Positions 2,755 to 12,388 of a stretch of DNA of 64,000 nucleotides are shown here, in pieces (position 1 is the stretch's first letter; each line of letters starts with the position of its first letter). The DNA is taken from IMG/VR virus record IMGVR_UViG_2740892230_000016; one strand, given 5' to 3'. A model generated the notes under the pieces. It did not search any database and had not been told where the DNA came from. It worked only from the letters and a program-made list of their open reading frames with translations. Source of the stretch: a virus (Duplodnaviria; Heunggongvirae; Uroviricota; Caudoviricetes). Position numbers and translations under genes: made by a program.

Positions 2755-5742
2755 ATGAGCTTAAGCGATCAGGTGGTGATGGCCACCAGCATAGAAACGC
2801 TGATCGAGCTGCTAAAAAACCTGCCCGATTACGGGCGGGTTTCGTATGTGGTGACAGCGAAGGGAGACGAGGTAAAAACAGCGTTTGATATCGTCGATGC
2901 CTCAACTCTTTTGGTATCCAATACTCTGGACGGGAAAATTAATCCGGACTATCCCCAGGAACTTCAGCCGCGCGACCGGACCCGCGCATCCAGCCTTCTT
3001 CAGGTTAACCAGATATCCAAGGATTTGCGGCCTGCTCAGCTTACCGATTCCGGTCTATCCAGCCATGGCGCGCCGATAATTGGTGAGGACAATGCCGTTG
3101 AGTCAGGTAATGGACGGACCATGGGGATCATTAAAGCCTATCAGGACGGCAATGCGGATCGGTATCGGGAGTACCTGATTGAACATGCGACCGAATTCGG
3201 CATACGACCTGAAAAGGTTGAATCAATGACGGCTCCGGTACTGGTGCGCCGCCGGTTAACGAAGGTTGACCGCGTTCAGTTTGCCAAGGACTCAAATATT
3301 TCTGATCTTCAGGAAATGGCAGCCAGTGAAAAGGCTTTTGTTGATGCCGACAACATAACTCCGGCGATGATGGCGCTGTTTAACCCGTCAGAAAGCGGAG
3401 ATCTGCTTAGCCGCAGTAATGACGCGTTTATTCGCGGATTCATGACGCAAGTTGGTGCCACACAGGCGGCTGGCCTTGTAACTGAAGATGGGCGACCAAC
3501 ACGGCAACTTGTTGACCGTATACAAAACGCGATCTTTGCCAAGGCATATAAGGATGCGCGCCTGGTAAGGATGGTTGCAGAAGAACCTGATCCGGATATG
3601 CGTAATGTTCTGACGGCGCTTAATGCGGCAGCCAATGATTTTGTCCAGATGCAGGCTTTATCAGGAGAAGCGCACAAGCAGGCTGTGACAACTATTGTTG
3701 ATGGCATTGAGACAGCGGATAGCCTCGATAAAAAGGCGCTGGCGGCATTGAAAGATGCGGTAGACCTGGTAAGGCAATCGAAGGAGTCAGGCCAGCATAT
3801 TACCGATGTTATTGCTCAGGGGGATATGTTCAGCGAAACGGCCCCGGAAGTGAAAGCACTCGCGTTGTTCATCGTCGCGAATAACCGTAGCGCGAAGCGT
3901 ATGGCCACCGCCTTTAAGTTGATGGCGCAACGTATCAATGATGAGTTACAGCACCAGGGCCAGGCGCTCGGGGATATGTTTGGCGGCGGCGATGTGTCGT
4001 TACAGGATATCCTTCGCCAGGTGTCTCAGGAACTGGAATACGAAGGCATGCAAGGGATATCCGGCGGTCTTTTCGAGTCCGTTTCCGGCGGTAGTTACAA
4101 CGGTGTTGCTCCGTATACCAGTTTGCTATTACATCGGGCATCCGGCATCAAAGACATTATTCATCTGATCAGGCTGCTTTCCCGCACAGATCCCCAGGAT
4201 GAACAGCTTGTACAAGTGCTTGCGCATTTTGTTCGAATGCCTGTTGCCGACGTGAAAAAATGGTGCCGATTATTCGGTATCAGCAATTCGTTACTTCGCG
4301 GCTTGTTAAATCACGCATCCTCCCTTGGGCGCGATGGCTTTGACGAGATAGCGCAGGCGATAAAAAACGGAGATATGCCACCAGCTATTGACTGGTTTTC
4401 CATTCGCCCAACCAGGGTGAAAGCATTCCTTAGCGCGGCGCATTCGGCATCACCATTGGCAGAAATGGTTCAGAGGTTGTCGCTCATATTCACAGACCAT
4501 ACCGCGTTGGGTGATCTGACTCTGGACGAGATGAAAGAAGCCTCCATTCAGTGGGCCGATCAACAAAATGAGGTTAACTCAGACTTCTTGCCAGCATTCA
4601 GGAAGGCCGTTGGTAAAGCGGATGATGCCCGTGGAATTCTGAAGGCATTTAAGGCATTGCAAAGTCGGGTTAATAAACATGTCGGTGATATCGATGGGGT
4701 AACGGCGGAAGGCAGGGATATCCTTAAAGAGCACGGCATAACGCCAGAGTTTATTGATGAGATCAGGACGGATATGCAGCGTGAGGTCGTATCGTCCCTG
4801 CAAATTGTAGCCAGAGCGTTGGCGGATGCTAATCCGAAGAGTGCGGCCATTGTTAACCGGGTTATTGGTGATATTGAAGCATCGGAGGGCATGGGGGCGC
4901 TGAAACTCTTCCTTTCGCGAGCGTTTAATCCTAACGGCAATATTCTCCCTGGCATTATTGGTGAGGCTAAAAAGTATGTCAGTGAAGAAGAACTTGAGCA
5001 GCTTGACCAACTACTTAAGCGATTCTCATACAACCCGCAGACACGCTGGCAAATGAATCAGCGAAGTATGGGTTCGGTCCACGAGAAAGTGTTATCTGCC
5101 ATGAACAGTGCGATCGCAAACTCATCCGTATCTGAAGAAAAAGCTCTTGAGTGGGCCGACTCTTTTATCACGGAAGAAGTGGAAGAAGCCCGCGCTGGAC
5201 AGAATGGTGGGATAGACCTGCGCAAGGAACTTGCTGATATTTATCGCCTGACCGGCGGTAAAATTTCGACCTTATCAAAGGTGGTTCACCACAAGGGAAG
5301 GGCATATGCAAATCTTAATGGTGTTGTTGCTGTCAATTTGAACGATGAAAATGCAAGTGCACTGTGGCACGAGCTGGGTCATCATCTTGAGTACAGTAAC
5401 CCTGGTTTGTTAGAGAAAGCCCGGTCATTCCTGAAGGCCAATGTTGAAGGGGATAAGCCATCTTTCGTTAATATCGGTGGGCGTGGCAAGCCTGAATGGT
5501 GCTTCAGATCTCGATTGAGTAATATTTATATGGCGAAGGTATACCCGCCAGTCTCAGTGAGTAACTCCGGGAAAATTCGGCAGAAATCACCGACCATTTC
5601 CAAAACGTCAGCAACGGAAGTATTCTCTATGGCTCTTCAGTTGTATCATGACAAAGAGGCCGCTGCCGCATCACTGATGAATGGTGACGGATTGCTGGAA
5701 CTGTTATTAGGTGTGGCAAAGGAGCTAAATAATGCAGATTAA
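2755..5742 (+). CDS. ddrB: DdrB-like large protein (995 aa)
   Basis: 995-aa ORF following ddrA in dar operon; ATG at 2755. Confidence 0.6.
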   Translation: MSLSDQVVMATSIETLIELLKNLPDYGRVSYVVTAKGDEVKTAFDIVDASTLLVSNTLDGKINPDYPQELQPRDRTRASSLLQVNQISKDLRPAQLTDSGLSSHGAPIIGEDNAVESGNGRTMGIIKAYQDGNADRYREYLIEHATEFGIRPEKVESMTAPVLVRRRLTKVDRVQFAKDSNISDLQEMAASEKAFVDADNITPAMMALFNPSESGDLLSRSNDAFIRGFMTQVGATQAAGLVTEDGRPTRQLVDRIQNAIFAKAYKDARLVRMVAEEPDPDMRNVLTALNAAANDFVQMQALSGEAHKQAVTTIVDGIETADSLDKKALAALKDAVDLVRQSKESGQHITDVIAQGDMFSETAPEVKALALFIVANNRSAKRMATAFKLMAQRINDELQHQGQALGDMFGGGDVSLQDILRQVSQELEYEGMQGISGGLFESVSGGSYNGVAPYTSLLLHRASGIKDIIHLIRLLSRTDPQDEQLVQVLAHFVRMPVADVKKWCRLFGISNSLLRGLLNHASSLGRDGFDEIAQAIKNGDMPPAIDWFSIRPTRVKAFLSAAHSASPLAEMVQRLSLIFTDHTALGDLTLDEMKEASIQWADQQNEVNSDFLPAFRKAVGKADDARGILKAFKALQSRVNKHVGDIDGVTAEGRDILKEHGITPEFIDEIRTDMQREVVSSLQIVARALADANPKSAAIVNRVIGDIEASEGMGALKLFLSRAFNPNGNILPGIIGEAKKYVSEEELEQLDQLLKRFSYNPQTRWQMNQRSMGSVHEKVLSAMNSAIANSSVSEEKALEWADSFITEEVEEARAGQNGGIDLRKELADIYRLTGGKISTLSKVVHHKGRAYANLNGVVAVNLNDENASALWHELGHHLEYSNPGLLEKARSFLKANVEGDKPSFVNIGGRGKPEWCFRSRLSNIYMAKVYPPVSVSNSGKIRQKSPTISKTSATEVFSMALQLYHDKEAAAASLMNGDGLLELLLGVAKELNNAD

Positions 5743-6040
5743 AATCGCAGCGCCATTAGGCGGAGATGCCATTATCGAATTTGATGATAATGAAGAAGTT
5801 TCCGGGCGTTTAAGCATTATCTCCGGTGACATTACCGAGGACATGATCGCTGAAGCCATAGCTGGAGCAAATCCCAATAGCTATATGGGATTCGTTAACA
5901 CCCTTGATGCTCCCGCAAGTGATGTTCTCCGAACGCTGTATCTTTACGCTGGCTGGTTTGTTGATTGGCCAGCAGTAGATGGTGGCGATGAGGACGACGA
6001 CGATGATTTTGGTGATCATATAGACCAGATCATATATTAA
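5732..6040 (+). CDS. hypothetical acidic protein (102 aa), distal gene of dar operon
   Basis: ORF overlapping ddrB end; C-terminal run DGGDEDDDDDFGD; no HTH so not an Xre-like hxr. Confidence 0.4.
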   Translation: MQIKIAAPLGGDAIIEFDDNEEVSGRLSIISGDITEDMIAEAIAGANPNSYMGFVNTLDAPASDVLRTLYLYAGWFVDWPAVDGGDEDDDDDFGDHIDQIIY

Positions 6041-6042
6041 AG

Positions 6043-6069
6043 AAATCCCGCCAATCGGCGGGATTTTTA
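6043..6069. terminator. bidirectional intrinsic terminator between convergent genes
   Basis: Inverted repeat AAATCCCGCC-aatc-GGCGGGATTT followed by T run, between stop at 6040 (+) and stop at 6072 (-). Confidence 0.6.
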
Positions 6070-6071
6070 CC

Positions 6072-7166
6072 TCACGAGAAGCTCTTTTCTGATGTCAGCC
6101 AACAGTGCTCGTGCAAATCTCTCGGAGGTTTTTCGACAAATGCCTCTTCAGCCACATCCTGCCAGGGGATTTGTTTAGCCCATTCAGCTATAGCGTTATG
6201 GTTTGCCGAGAATAACGGTATTGTATAGGCCTTCAGCCAGTCTAATGTGCTGGAGTTGTGTTTTTGAGCGTGATGTTTCGCATGGTGTTTGGCGATCACG
6301 ATCGTAGGCACTACCCATTTACTACCGTCAGTCATTGTGAAGTGCATATTACGGGGAACAGATGACTTTTCCATCAACTCCCGAATCCCGGGAAATTTCC
6401 CCAAGATCAATCGGCGATATTCATCGCTATTGCGCCCACCAAACTCTTTGGCTTTGAATTCAAGATATGCTTCAGAAACGAGAGGCGAATCCTCTGTGTT
6501 TAGAGTTATCGCCGTGAAAAAACCAGCAGGATTGTTTTTACTATGGGCCAACCGGTGATGCGAATCATAAAAGTACCCTTTCTCGCGTTCCGATGGTTTC
6601 GACAGCAACAGCAGGCGCGAGTCATAATTGGTTAAATTGCCAGTTATCACTGCATGAGCGCGATCGCTGATTTCCGCCGAGTTAATAACGATGAAAAGAT
6701 CGTGCGGTCCAGTAAAACCAGCCAGAGACACTTCGTTATTCAGACAATAGGTTATATAGACGCATCCCCATGTTTCACTGATATGCACCAACCCTTTGTC
6801 AGGGTGCATTCTGAAATGATTGCCAAGAAAAGGGTGTTTTTGGGTAACTCGCTCCCAATAACGGAACATATAGTCAATTATTGTTTTTCGACTATCGTTA
6901 ATAGCAGGAGAAACAACCACTGTACGGGAACACGAATACAGTATTGTTTGCAGGATGCTAATCACTGCCACAATAGAGGTTTCCCCAATACCATGTGGTG
7001 TGGTGGCAGTGACTTTGGCTCCGGTGTTCTTTATCGCGTTAATAATTTTTGCTTGATGAGGTGTTAACTCAATATCAAGCAACTCTTTCGCTGCCAGTTC
7101 CCAATTGTCTTTATACTGTTCTATCAGTGCTAACCAGGCAGATTCATTCTGTATACGATTAATCAC
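6072..7166 (-). CDS. terminase large subunit (PacB) paralog with degenerate Walker A/B motifs
   Basis: Clear similarity to PacB in this window (e.g. LLLSKPSEREKGYFYDSHHRLA vs [34 protein letters not shown] vs [13 protein letters not shown]) but Walker A GHGTGKS is PHGIGET and Walker B IIDEAS is VINSAE. Confidence 0.6.
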   Translation of the reverse strand: MINRIQNESAWLALIEQYKDNWELAAKELLDIELTPHQAKIINAIKNTGAKVTATTPHGIGETSIVAVISILQTILYSCSRTVVVSPAINDSRKTIIDYMFRYWERVTQKHPFLGNHFRMHPDKGLVHISETWGCVYITYCLNNEVSLAGFTGPHDLFIVINSAEISDRAHAVITGNLTNYDSRLLLLSKPSEREKGYFYDSHHRLAHSKNNPAGFFTAITLNTEDSPLVSEAYLEFKAKEFGGRNSDEYRRLILGKFPGIRELMEKSSVPRNMHFTMTDGSKWVVPTIVIAKHHAKHHAQKHNSSTLDWLKAYTIPLFSANHNAIAEWAKQIPWQDVAEEAFVEKPPRDLHEHCWLTSEKSFS

Positions 7167-7953
7167 TTTCCACCTCTTCCGTGGTGTTTTCTCGCAGTTC
7201 TGTTAATGCAGCACGACACAGGTTCCGGGCTTTGGCTATAGCCACACTTTTTACCTCATCCGTCATTGTGCAGGTAATGTACTGATCGAGTTCTTCAGCT
7301 CGGATGATGCTTTTCCCTATCATAAACTCTATTTGCCAGAGCAGATCGGCATCCATCGCCAGTATTTCAGCCTGGCCTTCTGGGCCTGCGGGGAAGCAAA
7401 CATAAGACTGTTTGCCCAGGCCGATAACTCGACAACTTGCTTCAAGAATTGCACGCTTGAGGTCTGACTTTGTAACTGAAACAGGTTGATTTTCACCTGT
7501 GATTACGCCGTTGACATGGACGTGGAAGGGCATGTAGCTTGAAATTCGCTCTACTTTCCATACGCCAGCAAGCGATCCTTCATGCAGCACGATGGGGGTA
7601 ACCGCGAGTTTCATCTCACCATATAACTGCTGGCAGATAACTGGATTACTGAATACATCCAGAGGTTCACACTCAAACAGCGGCGCAATCTGCATGAGGT
7701 CCATCATGGTCATACCAGGGGTACGAGCAGTAATGAATCTGCGCATTCCAGTATCCATTGTGCGCCAGATAGCTACACCATGCTTTTTGCTCACTTCTTC
7801 AGTAAAGCCAAGGTGGCACATGATGGTTTTTTCGATAGCCAGATCAGAGATAGAAACCTTTTCGCCTGGCACTCCATCGTTATTGATGGTCACTTCGACA
7901 CTCTGGCCATTACGTAGGCGGTATTGAATGGTTTTAGTATTTTGTGCTGTCAT
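7159..7953 (-). CDS. hypothetical protein (about 264 aa), upstream partner of the terminase-like gene
   Basis: ORF track gives 7159..8121 from an alternative start; first in-frame ATG (MTAQNTK) at 7953; stop overlaps next gene start. Confidence 0.4.
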   Translation of the reverse strand: MTAQNTKTIQYRLRNGQSVEVTINNDGVPGEKVSISDLAIEKTIMCHLGFTEEVSKKHGVAIWRTMDTGMRRFITARTPGMTMMDLMQIAPLFECEPLDVFSNPVICQQLYGEMKLAVTPIVLHEGSLAGVWKVERISSYMPFHVHVNGVITGENQPVSVTKSDLKRAILEASCRVIGLGKQSYVCFPAGPEGQAEILAMDADLLWQIEFMIGKSIIRAEELDQYITCTMTDEVKSVAIAKARNLCRAALTELRENTTEEVESD

Positions 7954-8150
7954 AGTCTTTTCTCTGCTTAAAAACTGATGTATTGCGCCTTCAGGTTGGT
8001 TAGGAATGTTTTCCCACCAGCGAAAGCAATATCTCGGGGTGTTCTTTTCGTGAAAAGCGCGCGCCATTGCCAACTTTGGCGTTTGTTTGCGAGTTCGTGC
8101 TTTTGTCGGCGTCTGGACCACCGCTTTTCTTTCAGTCGTTTTTTACACAT

Positions 8151-8639
8151 TCAAAACGGAATATCGTCGTCAAAGTCCATTGGAGGTTCGTTATTGGCGT
8201 TGCTCTGAGGTTTACCGCCACCACTGTATTGCTGGTGGTTTTGAGGTTGGTTTGATTGCCCCCAGCCATTTGAGGACTGTGAATCGTCACGGCGAGCGCC
8301 GATCATTTGCATGGTGCCGCCCTGGCTGACGATAATTTCCGTCGTGTAACGTTCTACACCGGCGTCATCTGCCCACTTACGGGTTTTAAGTTTCCCTTCG
8401 ATGTAGACCTGAGAACCTTTTCGTAAATACTCACTCGCAATTTCAGCAAGTTTTCCGAACAAAACGACTTTATGCCATTCTGTTTGCTCTTTCTGTTGGC
8501 CCGTTTGCTTGTCGCGCCATGATTCATTCGTTGCGATGCTGAGTCTTCCGACCGCGCCGCCATTTGGTATATACCTGATCTCCGGGTCTTGCCCCAGGGT
8601 GCCAATCAGGATGACTTTGTTTACACCGCGTTGTGCCAC
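8151..8639 (-). CDS. ssb: single-stranded DNA-binding protein
   Basis: [23 protein letters not shown]... with C-terminal DFDDDIPF tail typical of SSB; GTG start. Confidence 0.95.
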
Positions 8640-8658
8640 TTATCTTACCTAATAAAAT

Positions 8659-8675
8659 AAATTAATTAGAGCAAT
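8659..8675. promoter_or_regulatory. C1 repressor operator-like site between ssb and lyz
   Basis: AAATTAATTAGAGCAAT, 16/17 match to reverse complement of P1 C1 operator consensus ATTGCTCTAATAAATTT. Confidence 0.6.
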
Positions 8676-8808
8676 AATGTATATCTTTGAAACGTAGCTA
8701 ACAAGTGATTTGCATTATCCTGTGCCTTCTAAAGGGATCGAGTCAGTCGGTATTGGCTGTGAATGGGTGTTTGTCCTGGAGCGTAAAAAATTCGCTTATG
8801 AGGTCTTT

Positions 8809-9657: not shown

Positions 9658-12388
<2,731 letters not shown>

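Follow-up and report, generated by a model that had tools for sequence, protein, structure and literature searches.

The locus described here raises the question of why a P1-like phage-plasmid should carry, directly after isaA, a gene for a protein related to the large terminase subunit (TerL) PacB, which the same element also encodes elsewhere. The gene, here called ORF364 after the length of its open reading frame (ORF), lies in IMG/VR record IMGVR_UViG_2740892230_000016; the whole stretch of 64,000 nucleotides (nt) that was analyzed is referred to as the window and represents a P1-like phage-plasmid (Punavirus). ORF364 is a pseudo-enzyme offshoot of the terminase family that has already been present, unnoticed, in databases, and it is predicted to join a dead TerL ATPase domain to a small protein known from phage early regions. 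We regard it as close to certain that this is a true accessory gene maintained by purifying selection, whose product is a two-part pseudo-enzyme without a nuclease domain. Judged from its sequence, the protein probably works through binding and not through DNA packaging. The comparison with PacB rests on the following features (window coordinates; aa, amino acids):

6072-7166, minus strand: ORF364, 364 aa, GTG start; nuclease-less, catalytically dead PacB (TerL) paralog
6381-7166, minus strand: N-terminal TerL-type ATPase-fold domain, aa 1-262, assigned from the PacB alignment, the AlphaFold2 model and Foldseek
6978-7001, minus strand: degenerate Walker A motif T56-P-H-G-I-G-E62-T63 (PacB, S-G-H-G-T-G-K-S)
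6675-6698, minus strand: degenerate Walker B motif L157-F-I-V-I161-N162-S-A (PacB, L-Y-I-I-D-E-A-S)
6075-6380, minus strand: C-terminal domain, aa 263-364, unrelated to the PacB nuclease; homolog of a stand-alone phage protein that is widespread
26418-27902, minus strand: pacB, intact TerL used as reference paralog, SGHGTGKS and IIDEAS motifs intact
27902-29095, minus strand: pacA

A preliminary description of this DNA had aligned the 364-aa product with the ATPase region of PacB and predicted an ATPase-dead terminase paralog. In BLASTP, aa 11-272 of ORF364 align with aa 11-274 of the PacB of the window (35% identity, 58% positives, E 7e-53), and past aa ~272 no alignment to the PacB nuclease region (aa 275-494) is found. 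The Walker A sequence SGHGTGKS of PacB reads TPHGIGET, as had been noticed, with the lysine changed to Glu62 (K62E) and the serine to Thr63 (S63T). The loss of the Walker B acidic residues was likewise seen correctly, with the register off by one: YIIDEAS of PacB aligns with FIVINSA, which places I161 at the aspartate and N162 at the glutamate. Once aligned, the catalytic Lys, Asp and Glu are thus all replaced, and the SQPT coupling (C) motif has become SKPS.

The fold itself is predicted to be retained. An AlphaFold2 model of ORF364, built on a 16-sequence alignment, has a mean predicted local distance difference test score (pLDDT) of 84.8; the score exceeds 90 across most of aa 10-250 and is ~55-77 in the last ~100 residues. 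When the model was compared with the PDB by Foldseek, the large terminases of Sf6 (gp2), P74-26, HK97, D6E and T4 (gp17) were the top matches (E 6e-9 to 3e-7), with the Avs3-bound PhiV-1 terminase also among the matches, and large terminases again stood on top in a fold search of BFVD. From six features that mark a functional TerL, ORF364 shows the TerL-type ATPase fold of the additional strand, catalytic glutamate (ASCE) class alone and fails in the other five. Since it lacks the P-loop lysine, the catalytic glutamate, the coupling motif, the nuclease domain and an adjoining small-subunit gene (it lies downstream of ssb-isaA, not in the late packaging operon), ORF364 is not a working terminase. 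The motif alignment, the fold match and the conservation analysis given below all support the prediction of a dead paralog.

Relatives were collected to see how far this state extends beyond the window. While a word-indexed protein search returned 3 relatives only, exhaustive phmmer against 1.8 billion cluster representatives gave 644 matches, most of them terminases of ~450-570 aa with SGHGTGKS and hhhDE intact. Among the best 141 matches (at least 200 aa), 13 rows are catalytically dead: ORF364, the near-identical P0001 and 11 distinct relatives (P0002, P0004, P0006, P0007, P0009, P0010, P0013, P0014, P0040, P0042 and P0057), all of the latter without a nuclease domain. Every member of the clade lacks the catalytic Lys and Glu, and most dead relatives are 244-268 aa long (250-270 aa for most members of the clade) and end just past the G.FP motif, that is, they consist of the ATPase domain only. 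The C-terminal domain is present, within the clade, in the branch of ORF364, P0002 and P0004 alone; P0010 carries a different C-terminal extension. A quick neighbor-joining tree of the ATPase domain, which is rough and may suffer from long-branch attraction, placed 11 of 12 dead sequences (ORF364 included) in one clade outside the live PacB-like clade and gave P0040 a separate origin. ORF364 also matches the profile of PHROG 5902 over its whole length (aa 1-364 to profile positions 1-359 of 359, E 5e-184). Matches in viral contigs were mostly ordinary PacB genes, set aside by a motif check. A recent origin of ORF364 by duplication of the resident pacB was rejected, as the two share 35% identity only and the dead proteins form an old clade of their own; for the same reasons, nothing points to co-evolution of ORF364 with the cognate PacB. 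As a side observation, the intact PacB-like large terminases P0032, P0039, P0053 and P0137 have an intein-like insertion in the Walker A P-loop, between GHG and TGKS.

Which parts of PacB the dead proteins have kept was assessed by comparing 15 intact PacB-like TerLs with 11 dead relatives. In the intact set, 70 positions reach a conservation of 80% or more; at 32 of the 70, 8 or more of the 11 dead proteins keep the residue. The kept positions include the N-terminal W..L...Y..W..AA helices, the invariant Q38 and both P-loop glycines, together with the motifs LAG, GYFYDSHH, EDSPLV and YGGR..Y...G.FP. Positions kept in 0-2 of the 11 are mostly concerned with nucleotide handling: S56, G57, T60, K62 and S63 of Walker A, the AGEH motif, D162, E163, S165 and G166 of Walker B and its flank, and Q191 and T193 of SQPT; scattered losses outside the nucleotide motifs are A86, Q91, K98, S224, I252 and K253. 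The Walker A lysine is found in all 15 live proteins and in none of the 11 dead ones, in which the Walker B aspartate survives twice and the catalytic glutamate and the Gln and Thr of the coupling motif never. Catalysis is, by this alignment, largely and selectively erased while the fold is retained, which is the signature of a pseudo-enzyme and not of random decay.

The last ~100 residues have a different source. Residues ~270-364 match PHROG 17928, and a profile of the C-terminal domain built from 4 sequences retrieved 355 proteins, almost all of them stand-alone 'hypothetical' proteins of 97-105 aa without any Pfam domain. Because the domain occurs elsewhere as a stand-alone phage early-region protein, ORF364 is read as a fusion. 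Three enterobacterial contexts of stand-alone relatives were inspected. In two lambdoid prophages (L097 and L098, 6001-6315) the gene belongs to the early replication/nin region, where the order is a DnaB-type helicase gene, two small ORFs, the gene itself, DUF551 and NinB/NinG; in a P1-like plasmid (L099 6001-6297) the gene follows the DnaB-type helicase gene directly. In P1, dbn (downstream of ban) would be expected at this last position. A fourth context, from Syntrophotalea carbinolica, lies amid insertion sequence (IS) elements and was uninformative. No second copy of the domain exists in the window. Separately, in the metagenomic protein P0023 (246 aa) the order is swapped: the small domain comes first, at the N-terminus, and a dead TerL ATPase domain, whose P-loop reads GSGTGTTT, comes second. 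The protein ends inside the ATPase domain, apparently truncated, and the two modules seem to have been joined independently in this case.

Selection on the gene was estimated by the Nei-Gojobori method. The ratio of nonsynonymous to synonymous substitution rates (dN/dS) is 0.17-0.22 for the window allele compared with three other alleles; for the C-terminal domain it is 0.03 in the most divergent pair, a value based on few substitutions. The 1.1-kb cassette is nearly full length in 119 of the 120 matching PLSDB plasmids, and at least 119 plasmids keep the reading frame uninterrupted. The plasmid in NZ_CP039862 is one natural carrier. Carriers in PLSDB belong to Escherichia, Salmonella, Klebsiella and Shigella and are mostly ~90-100 kb and non-mobilizable. 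Among 5,426 complete E. coli genomes, 100 contain the cassette, at 101 places of which 99 are on plasmids. In PLSDB, isaA is present in 336 plasmids and a complete P1-type isaB segment in only 25, and about one third of the isaA-bearing P1-like plasmids have the ORF364 gene.

The cassette fits precisely into the interval from the isaA stop codon to the terminator of the operon. Window positions 5700-6040 (hxr) and 7143-8700 (isaA and ssb) are ~98% identical to P1 (NC_005856; 97.8% for 7143-8700), and 6041-7142 has no counterpart in that record, which agrees with the earlier statement that the gene is unfamiliar at this place in P1. The P1 slot holds 1.7 kb with isaB and IS1 instead. IsaB and IS1 are found nowhere in the 64-kb window; the absence of IS1 had been noted before, at a place where isaA, IS1, isaB and hxr were expected, and of these isaA and hxr are in fact present. 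P1 IsaB shares with ORF364 the slot, from the isaA stop to the hxr end, and the strand. It differs in being a 201-aa protein of PHROG 30162 with no detectable similarity to ORF364 or PacB (best BLASTP E against ORF364 = 1.3, YP_006489). A history in which IS1 interrupted ORF364 in P1 and left isaB as its 3' remnant was considered and rejected: IsaB is unrelated, IS1 (L001 2692-3459, corresponding to NC_005856 22626-23393) is flanked by an intact 9-bp duplication, CAGAGGGCA, between isaA and isaB, and its removal leaves the isaB frame unextended. As a simple intergenic insertion beside an unrelated gene, IS1 did not destroy ORF364. P1 isaA and isaB appear as two complete unrelated genes and not as halves of one interrupted gene. 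By alignment, P1 and the window element carry alternative cargo at one slot.

Further relatives differ at the same place. In SJ46 the slot is empty, the isaA TAA being followed directly by the hairpin that in the window comes after the ORF364 stop; the slot of Ro157c2YLVW holds a 95-aa ORF and that of RCS47 a transposase, and P7, which is without isaA, carries nmpC. The slot is thus a hotspot, and its variability among P1, SJ46, Ro157c2YLVW and RCS47, together with the patchy occurrence in plasmids, bears out the suggestion that ORF364 belongs to an accessory module. Isa genes, hxr and ssb were non-essential in P1 by CRISPR interference (isaA, isaB, hxr and ssb; PMC10695390). As P1 and SJ46 do without it, ORF364 is dispensable for a P1-type life cycle. 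Three phage records match an entire 3-kb query from the locus, namely MH422554, MH445380 (99.6%) and vB_EcoM-813R1 (96.7%). The gene is labeled 'terminase large subunit' (automatically) in MH422554 and MH445380, 'hypothetical protein' in most plasmids, and PHROG 5902 is listed as 'unknown function'. A second variable slot was observed between ssb and isaA, at ~7943-7950, where the window has a spacer of only ~200 nt (~7943-8150). This second slot is occupied in SJ46 and Ro157c2YLVW by a DUF2829 gene (L003 2163-3008; L006 2880-3557) with 66% identity to L096 6590-7234, whose Pfam family is Tad2-like (PF11195), suggesting an anti-Thoeris sponge.

For the question of when ORF364 is made, its surroundings are needed:

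2755-5742, plus strand: ddrB
5732-6040, plus strand: hxr ortholog, 102 aa, 97.7% identity to P1 hxr, PHROG 2292; convergent with ORF364
6043-6066, minus strand: intrinsic terminator hairpin with a 10-bp stem, from a terminator scan; directly after the ORF364 stop and shared with the convergent hxr
7159-7176, minus strand: coupling junction, with Shine-Dalgarno sequence GAGGTGG at 7176-7170, GTG at 7166-7164 and isaA TAA at 7161-7159
7159-7953, minus strand: isaA, 264 aa; ATG at 7953 backed by the starts of homologs and the PHROG 2326 profile
8151-8639, minus strand: ssb, first gene of the operon, from the ORF list and the P1 comparison
8659-8675, minus strand: C1 operator Ossb/Op21, ATTGCTCTAATTAATTT, located upstream of ssb; differs at one position from the consensus used and matches the operator annotated in P1
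8710-9366, plus strand: lyz

Read directly from the sequence, the GTG start of ORF364 overlaps the isaA stop (GTGATTAA). This overlap and the GAGGTGG Shine-Dalgarno sequence support the translational coupling that had been proposed. The upstream partner was given its correct length of 264 aa at that time; it is not an unknown protein, being P1 IsaA itself. Its mechanically called ORF has a GTG start, extends to 8121 (320 aa) and crosses the ssb-isaA spacer. An AlphaFold model of IsaA, based on a shallow alignment, reached a pLDDT of 43. The view that a helix-turn-helix (HTH) gene is missing is half right: the hxr ortholog lies at 5732-6040, just outside the interval considered, and no Pfam HTH match is detected in it at E up to 1. 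The P1 label 'homolog of Xre' for hxr corresponds to 28% identity across ~60 residues, and hxr overlaps the end of ddrB by 11 nt.

The P1 record annotates C1-controlled ssb promoters and the operator Ossb/Op21, and a sequence scan of the minus strand from ssb to the ORF364 stop found no promoter-like or terminator-like site. On the simplest reading of the sequence, ssb, isaA and ORF364 form one operon that ends with ORF364 and would be repressed by C1 in the lysogen. As the last gene of a C1-repressed ssb operon, ORF364 would be produced early after induction or infection, ahead of PacA and PacB; this timing comes from the sequence and the P1 annotation. In P1, pacAB is expressed late.

Dead relatives occur in other neighborhoods as well. 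The four long contigs inspected that carry them (L014, L087, L094 and L096) are P1-like elements with their own intact PacA/PacB, a C1 repressor and a Cre-type recombinase. In L014, an IsaA homolog (48% identity) overlaps a 364-aa dead TerL (52% identity) whose ATG lies 11 nt before the stop codon; this pair adjoins the cre/c1/pacAB region, not ssb. The public model of this protein, P0002 (438 aa, 'MAG TPA: Terminase large subunit', L014 9692-11077), is over-extended at the N-terminus, its true start by homology and by the overlap with the isaA-like stop being the ATG at L014 9983, which gives 364 aa. L096 has the string dUTPase, Tad2-like (PF11195), IsaA-like (45% identity) and a 266-aa dead TerL without the C-terminal domain, and the Tad2-like proteins of L096, L014 and SJ46 are mutually homologous. 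In L087 the 263-aa dead TerL P0013 starts inside the stop of a gene for a Ref-like RecA-dependent nuclease (ATGATGA overlap; L087 9336-10792), and the homolog in L086 lies downstream of a radical SAM gene. The L087 lineage (also L088 and L089) further has a HAD/PNKP gene and a HigB/HTH toxin-antitoxin pair nearby. Upstream of P0014, 880 nt of L094 (7119-8001) are free of called genes and contain a tRNA-like 3' end (GGTTCGATTCC...ACCA) and several hairpins; ARAGORN called no tRNA or tmRNA in this stretch.

Searches for known domains gave no direct lead to function. ORF364, IsaA and Hxr have no significant match in Pfam, NCBIfam or PADLOC (PADLOC-DB at E up to 1), Pfam scans of neighbors and relatives yielded nothing informative, and no PDB sequence was matched below E 0.2, whether the query was ORF364 itself or a profile of the dead clade, of IsaA or of the C-terminal domain.

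The PacB fold and about half of the conserved positions have been kept long after catalysis was lost; the dead proteins would therefore have been selected for their likeness to PacB, and this implies that they bind something that binds PacB. We tentatively favor the reading that ORF364 is a non-catalytic, stoichiometric mimic of the PacB ATPase with a role in an arms race, preferably in counter-defense. Avs1-3 sense TerL by direct binding, and Avs sensing generally appears to be targeted at monomers (PMC13581612). ORF364 might occupy host sensors of the terminase fold (Avs1-3-type) without activating them, or it might pair with nascent PacB monomers and hide them from such sensors, and IsaA and/or the C-terminal domain could serve as an accessory part. 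Several features are consistent with counter-defense: the dar antirestriction operon (ddrB/hxr) runs toward the locus in convergent orientation, a Tad2-like/DUF2829 gene stands immediately upstream of isaA in the gene string of relatives, a PNKP gene lies near the L087 homolog, the distribution is patchy and accessory, and expression is predicted to be early and C1-controlled. Moreover, the pair of IsaA and dead TerL is kept at 45-52% identity in a different genomic neighborhood. The wider proposal is more doubtful, namely that the whole dead clade neutralizes terminase-fold immunity of the Avs1-3 type early in infection, either as non-activating pseudo-ligands or as shields of PacB monomers, with IsaA and/or the borrowed domain as the blocker.

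A number of points weigh against counter-defense. A faithful TerL mimic could trigger Avs instead of blocking it. Avs3 is reported to read the ATPase and nuclease active sites; since ORF364 is without these sites, Avs3 is an unlikely target. PADLOC, Pfam and NCBIfam offer no match for ORF364, and its proximity to Tad2-like and dar genes counts for little as evidence. Partners vary across the dead clade (Ref-like nuclease, radical SAM), which hints at roles in DNA metabolism, and IsaA is often found without ORF364 (336 as compared with 120 plasmids).

An effect on packaging follows most directly from homology, which is recognizable solely to the TerL ATPase domain, and had been raised in the preliminary description as packaging interference. 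We consider it a close, somewhat less likely rival; the genomic context speaks at least as much for counter-defense. ORF364 would then be a modulator or poison that enters or caps PacB rings, or else sequesters PacA or the portal protein (window 10670-12379), either tuning pac cleavage and headful packaging of its own phage or acting as a dominant-negative factor against competing phages or satellites of the PacAB type. The TerL ATPase domain mediates ring assembly and contacts to the small terminase subunit (TerS) or the portal, as in T4 gp17 and P74-26 TerL, and ATPase-dead subunits are a known theme as stators or regulators of ring ATPases, as in delta-prime of the clamp loader. The many non-catalytic PacB-conserved positions that are retained fit this reading, as does the presence of intact PacA/PacB in four of four long contigs (L014, L087, L094 and L096). 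However, P1, SJ46 and most isaA-bearing plasmids package without ORF364, and the gene sits in an early C1-repressed operon, neither with the late pac genes nor active in the prophage, as would be expected of an exclusion factor. The 35% identity to its own PacB and the old separate clade speak against co-evolution. Also counted against a role in packaging, the packaging-interference proteins known to us are encoded by satellites and not by the phage itself.

Turning from packaging to replication or recombination, the dead ATPase fold could form a DNA- or protein-binding scaffold, an adaptor between variable partner enzymes and the replisome. The shared operon with ssb points in this direction, and so do the L087 homolog that overlaps the Ref-like RecA-dependent nuclease gene, the L086 homolog after a radical SAM gene, and the three enterobacterial loci inspected, each of which places a stand-alone C-terminal-domain relative shortly after a DnaB-type helicase gene; Q38 (the adenine-binding Q motif) and two P-loop glycines are invariant. 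We nevertheless judge an adaptor improbable: Pfam, NCBIfam and PDB searches detected no DNA-binding motif and no similarity to replication proteins, the partners are heterogeneous, and the patchy accessory distribution suits arms-race genes better.

Very little speaks for a decaying, functionless duplicate of pacB whose frame happens still to be open. All catalytic motifs and the nuclease domain are gone, as such a history would predict, yet the low dN/dS (0.17-0.22, and 0.03 in the C-terminal domain) and the frame that is intact in at least 119 plasmids are those of a maintained gene. Orthologs at 46-52% identity keep the pairing with isaA, the one in L014 with the same length (364 aa) and an overlapping start, and the dead clade conserves the 32 of 70 positions described above. 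That ORF364 is a second functional TerL, as the label in MH422554 and MH445380 implies, has next to no chance: the automatic annotation and a PHROG 2 match at E 1e-7 stand against the absence of Walker A Lys, Walker B Asp/Glu, SQPT, the RNase H-like nuclease domain and an adjoining small-subunit gene, and against the intact pacA-pacB pair elsewhere in the window.

TerLs are treated as a single-copy, essential hallmark of tailed phages and count among the main targets of bacterial innate immunity. The existence of a widespread, conserved clade that is ATPase-dead and nuclease-less shows that this fold has come to serve a non-enzymatic purpose. If the function is immune evasion or manipulation of packaging, ORF364 would represent a new class of phage counter-measure or regulator, possibly with relevance to P1-based transduction and to the spread of resistance genes on carrier plasmids; if sensors of the Avs type are the target, this would be the first 'self-mimic' anti-Avs strategy of a phage. 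In the literature covered, which left out most subscription journals, no description of the gene, of the dead-TerL clade or of a terminase-mimicking anti-defense or regulatory protein was found. The automatic label 'terminase large subunit' is misleading and may lead terminase-based classification of phages astray. Since P1 is genetically tractable and does not naturally have the gene, the function of ORF364 can be tested directly.

Among known systems, PacB of P1 and PacB-like TerLs are related to ORF364 by homology of the ATPase domain, predicted fold and shared non-catalytic motifs. ORF364 differs from them by the loss of Walker A Lys, Walker B Asp/Glu, AGEH, SQPT and the nuclease and by its unrelated ~100-aa domain; furthermore, it does not stand beside pacA, is inferred to be early instead of late, and is accessory, not essential. 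PHROG 5902 and the dead clade resemble it in the full-length profile match and in the common loss of catalytic residues. The SaPI (Staphylococcus aureus pathogenicity island) protein Ppi, the protein Rpp of phage-inducible chromosomal islands (PICIs) and the TerS homologs of PICIs and SaPIs are small accessory satellite proteins that act stoichiometrically on the terminase without catalysis. Compared by description, they are the closest precedent for a terminase-binding pseudo-subunit; unlike ORF364, they bind or replace the small subunit, are not TerL homologs and are encoded by helper-dependent parasites, not by the phage. Poxvirus K3L is a mimic of eIF2-alpha directed at PKR, and anti-defense proteins of the Tad2/DUF2829 type cluster in early accessory loci. 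Neither Ppi and Rpp nor the viral decoys are homologous to ORF364; with decoys of the K3L type it would share the principle of an early-made, catalytically inert copy of a sensed protein whose gene lies among those for counter-defense, the binding of ORF364 to a sensor being putative.

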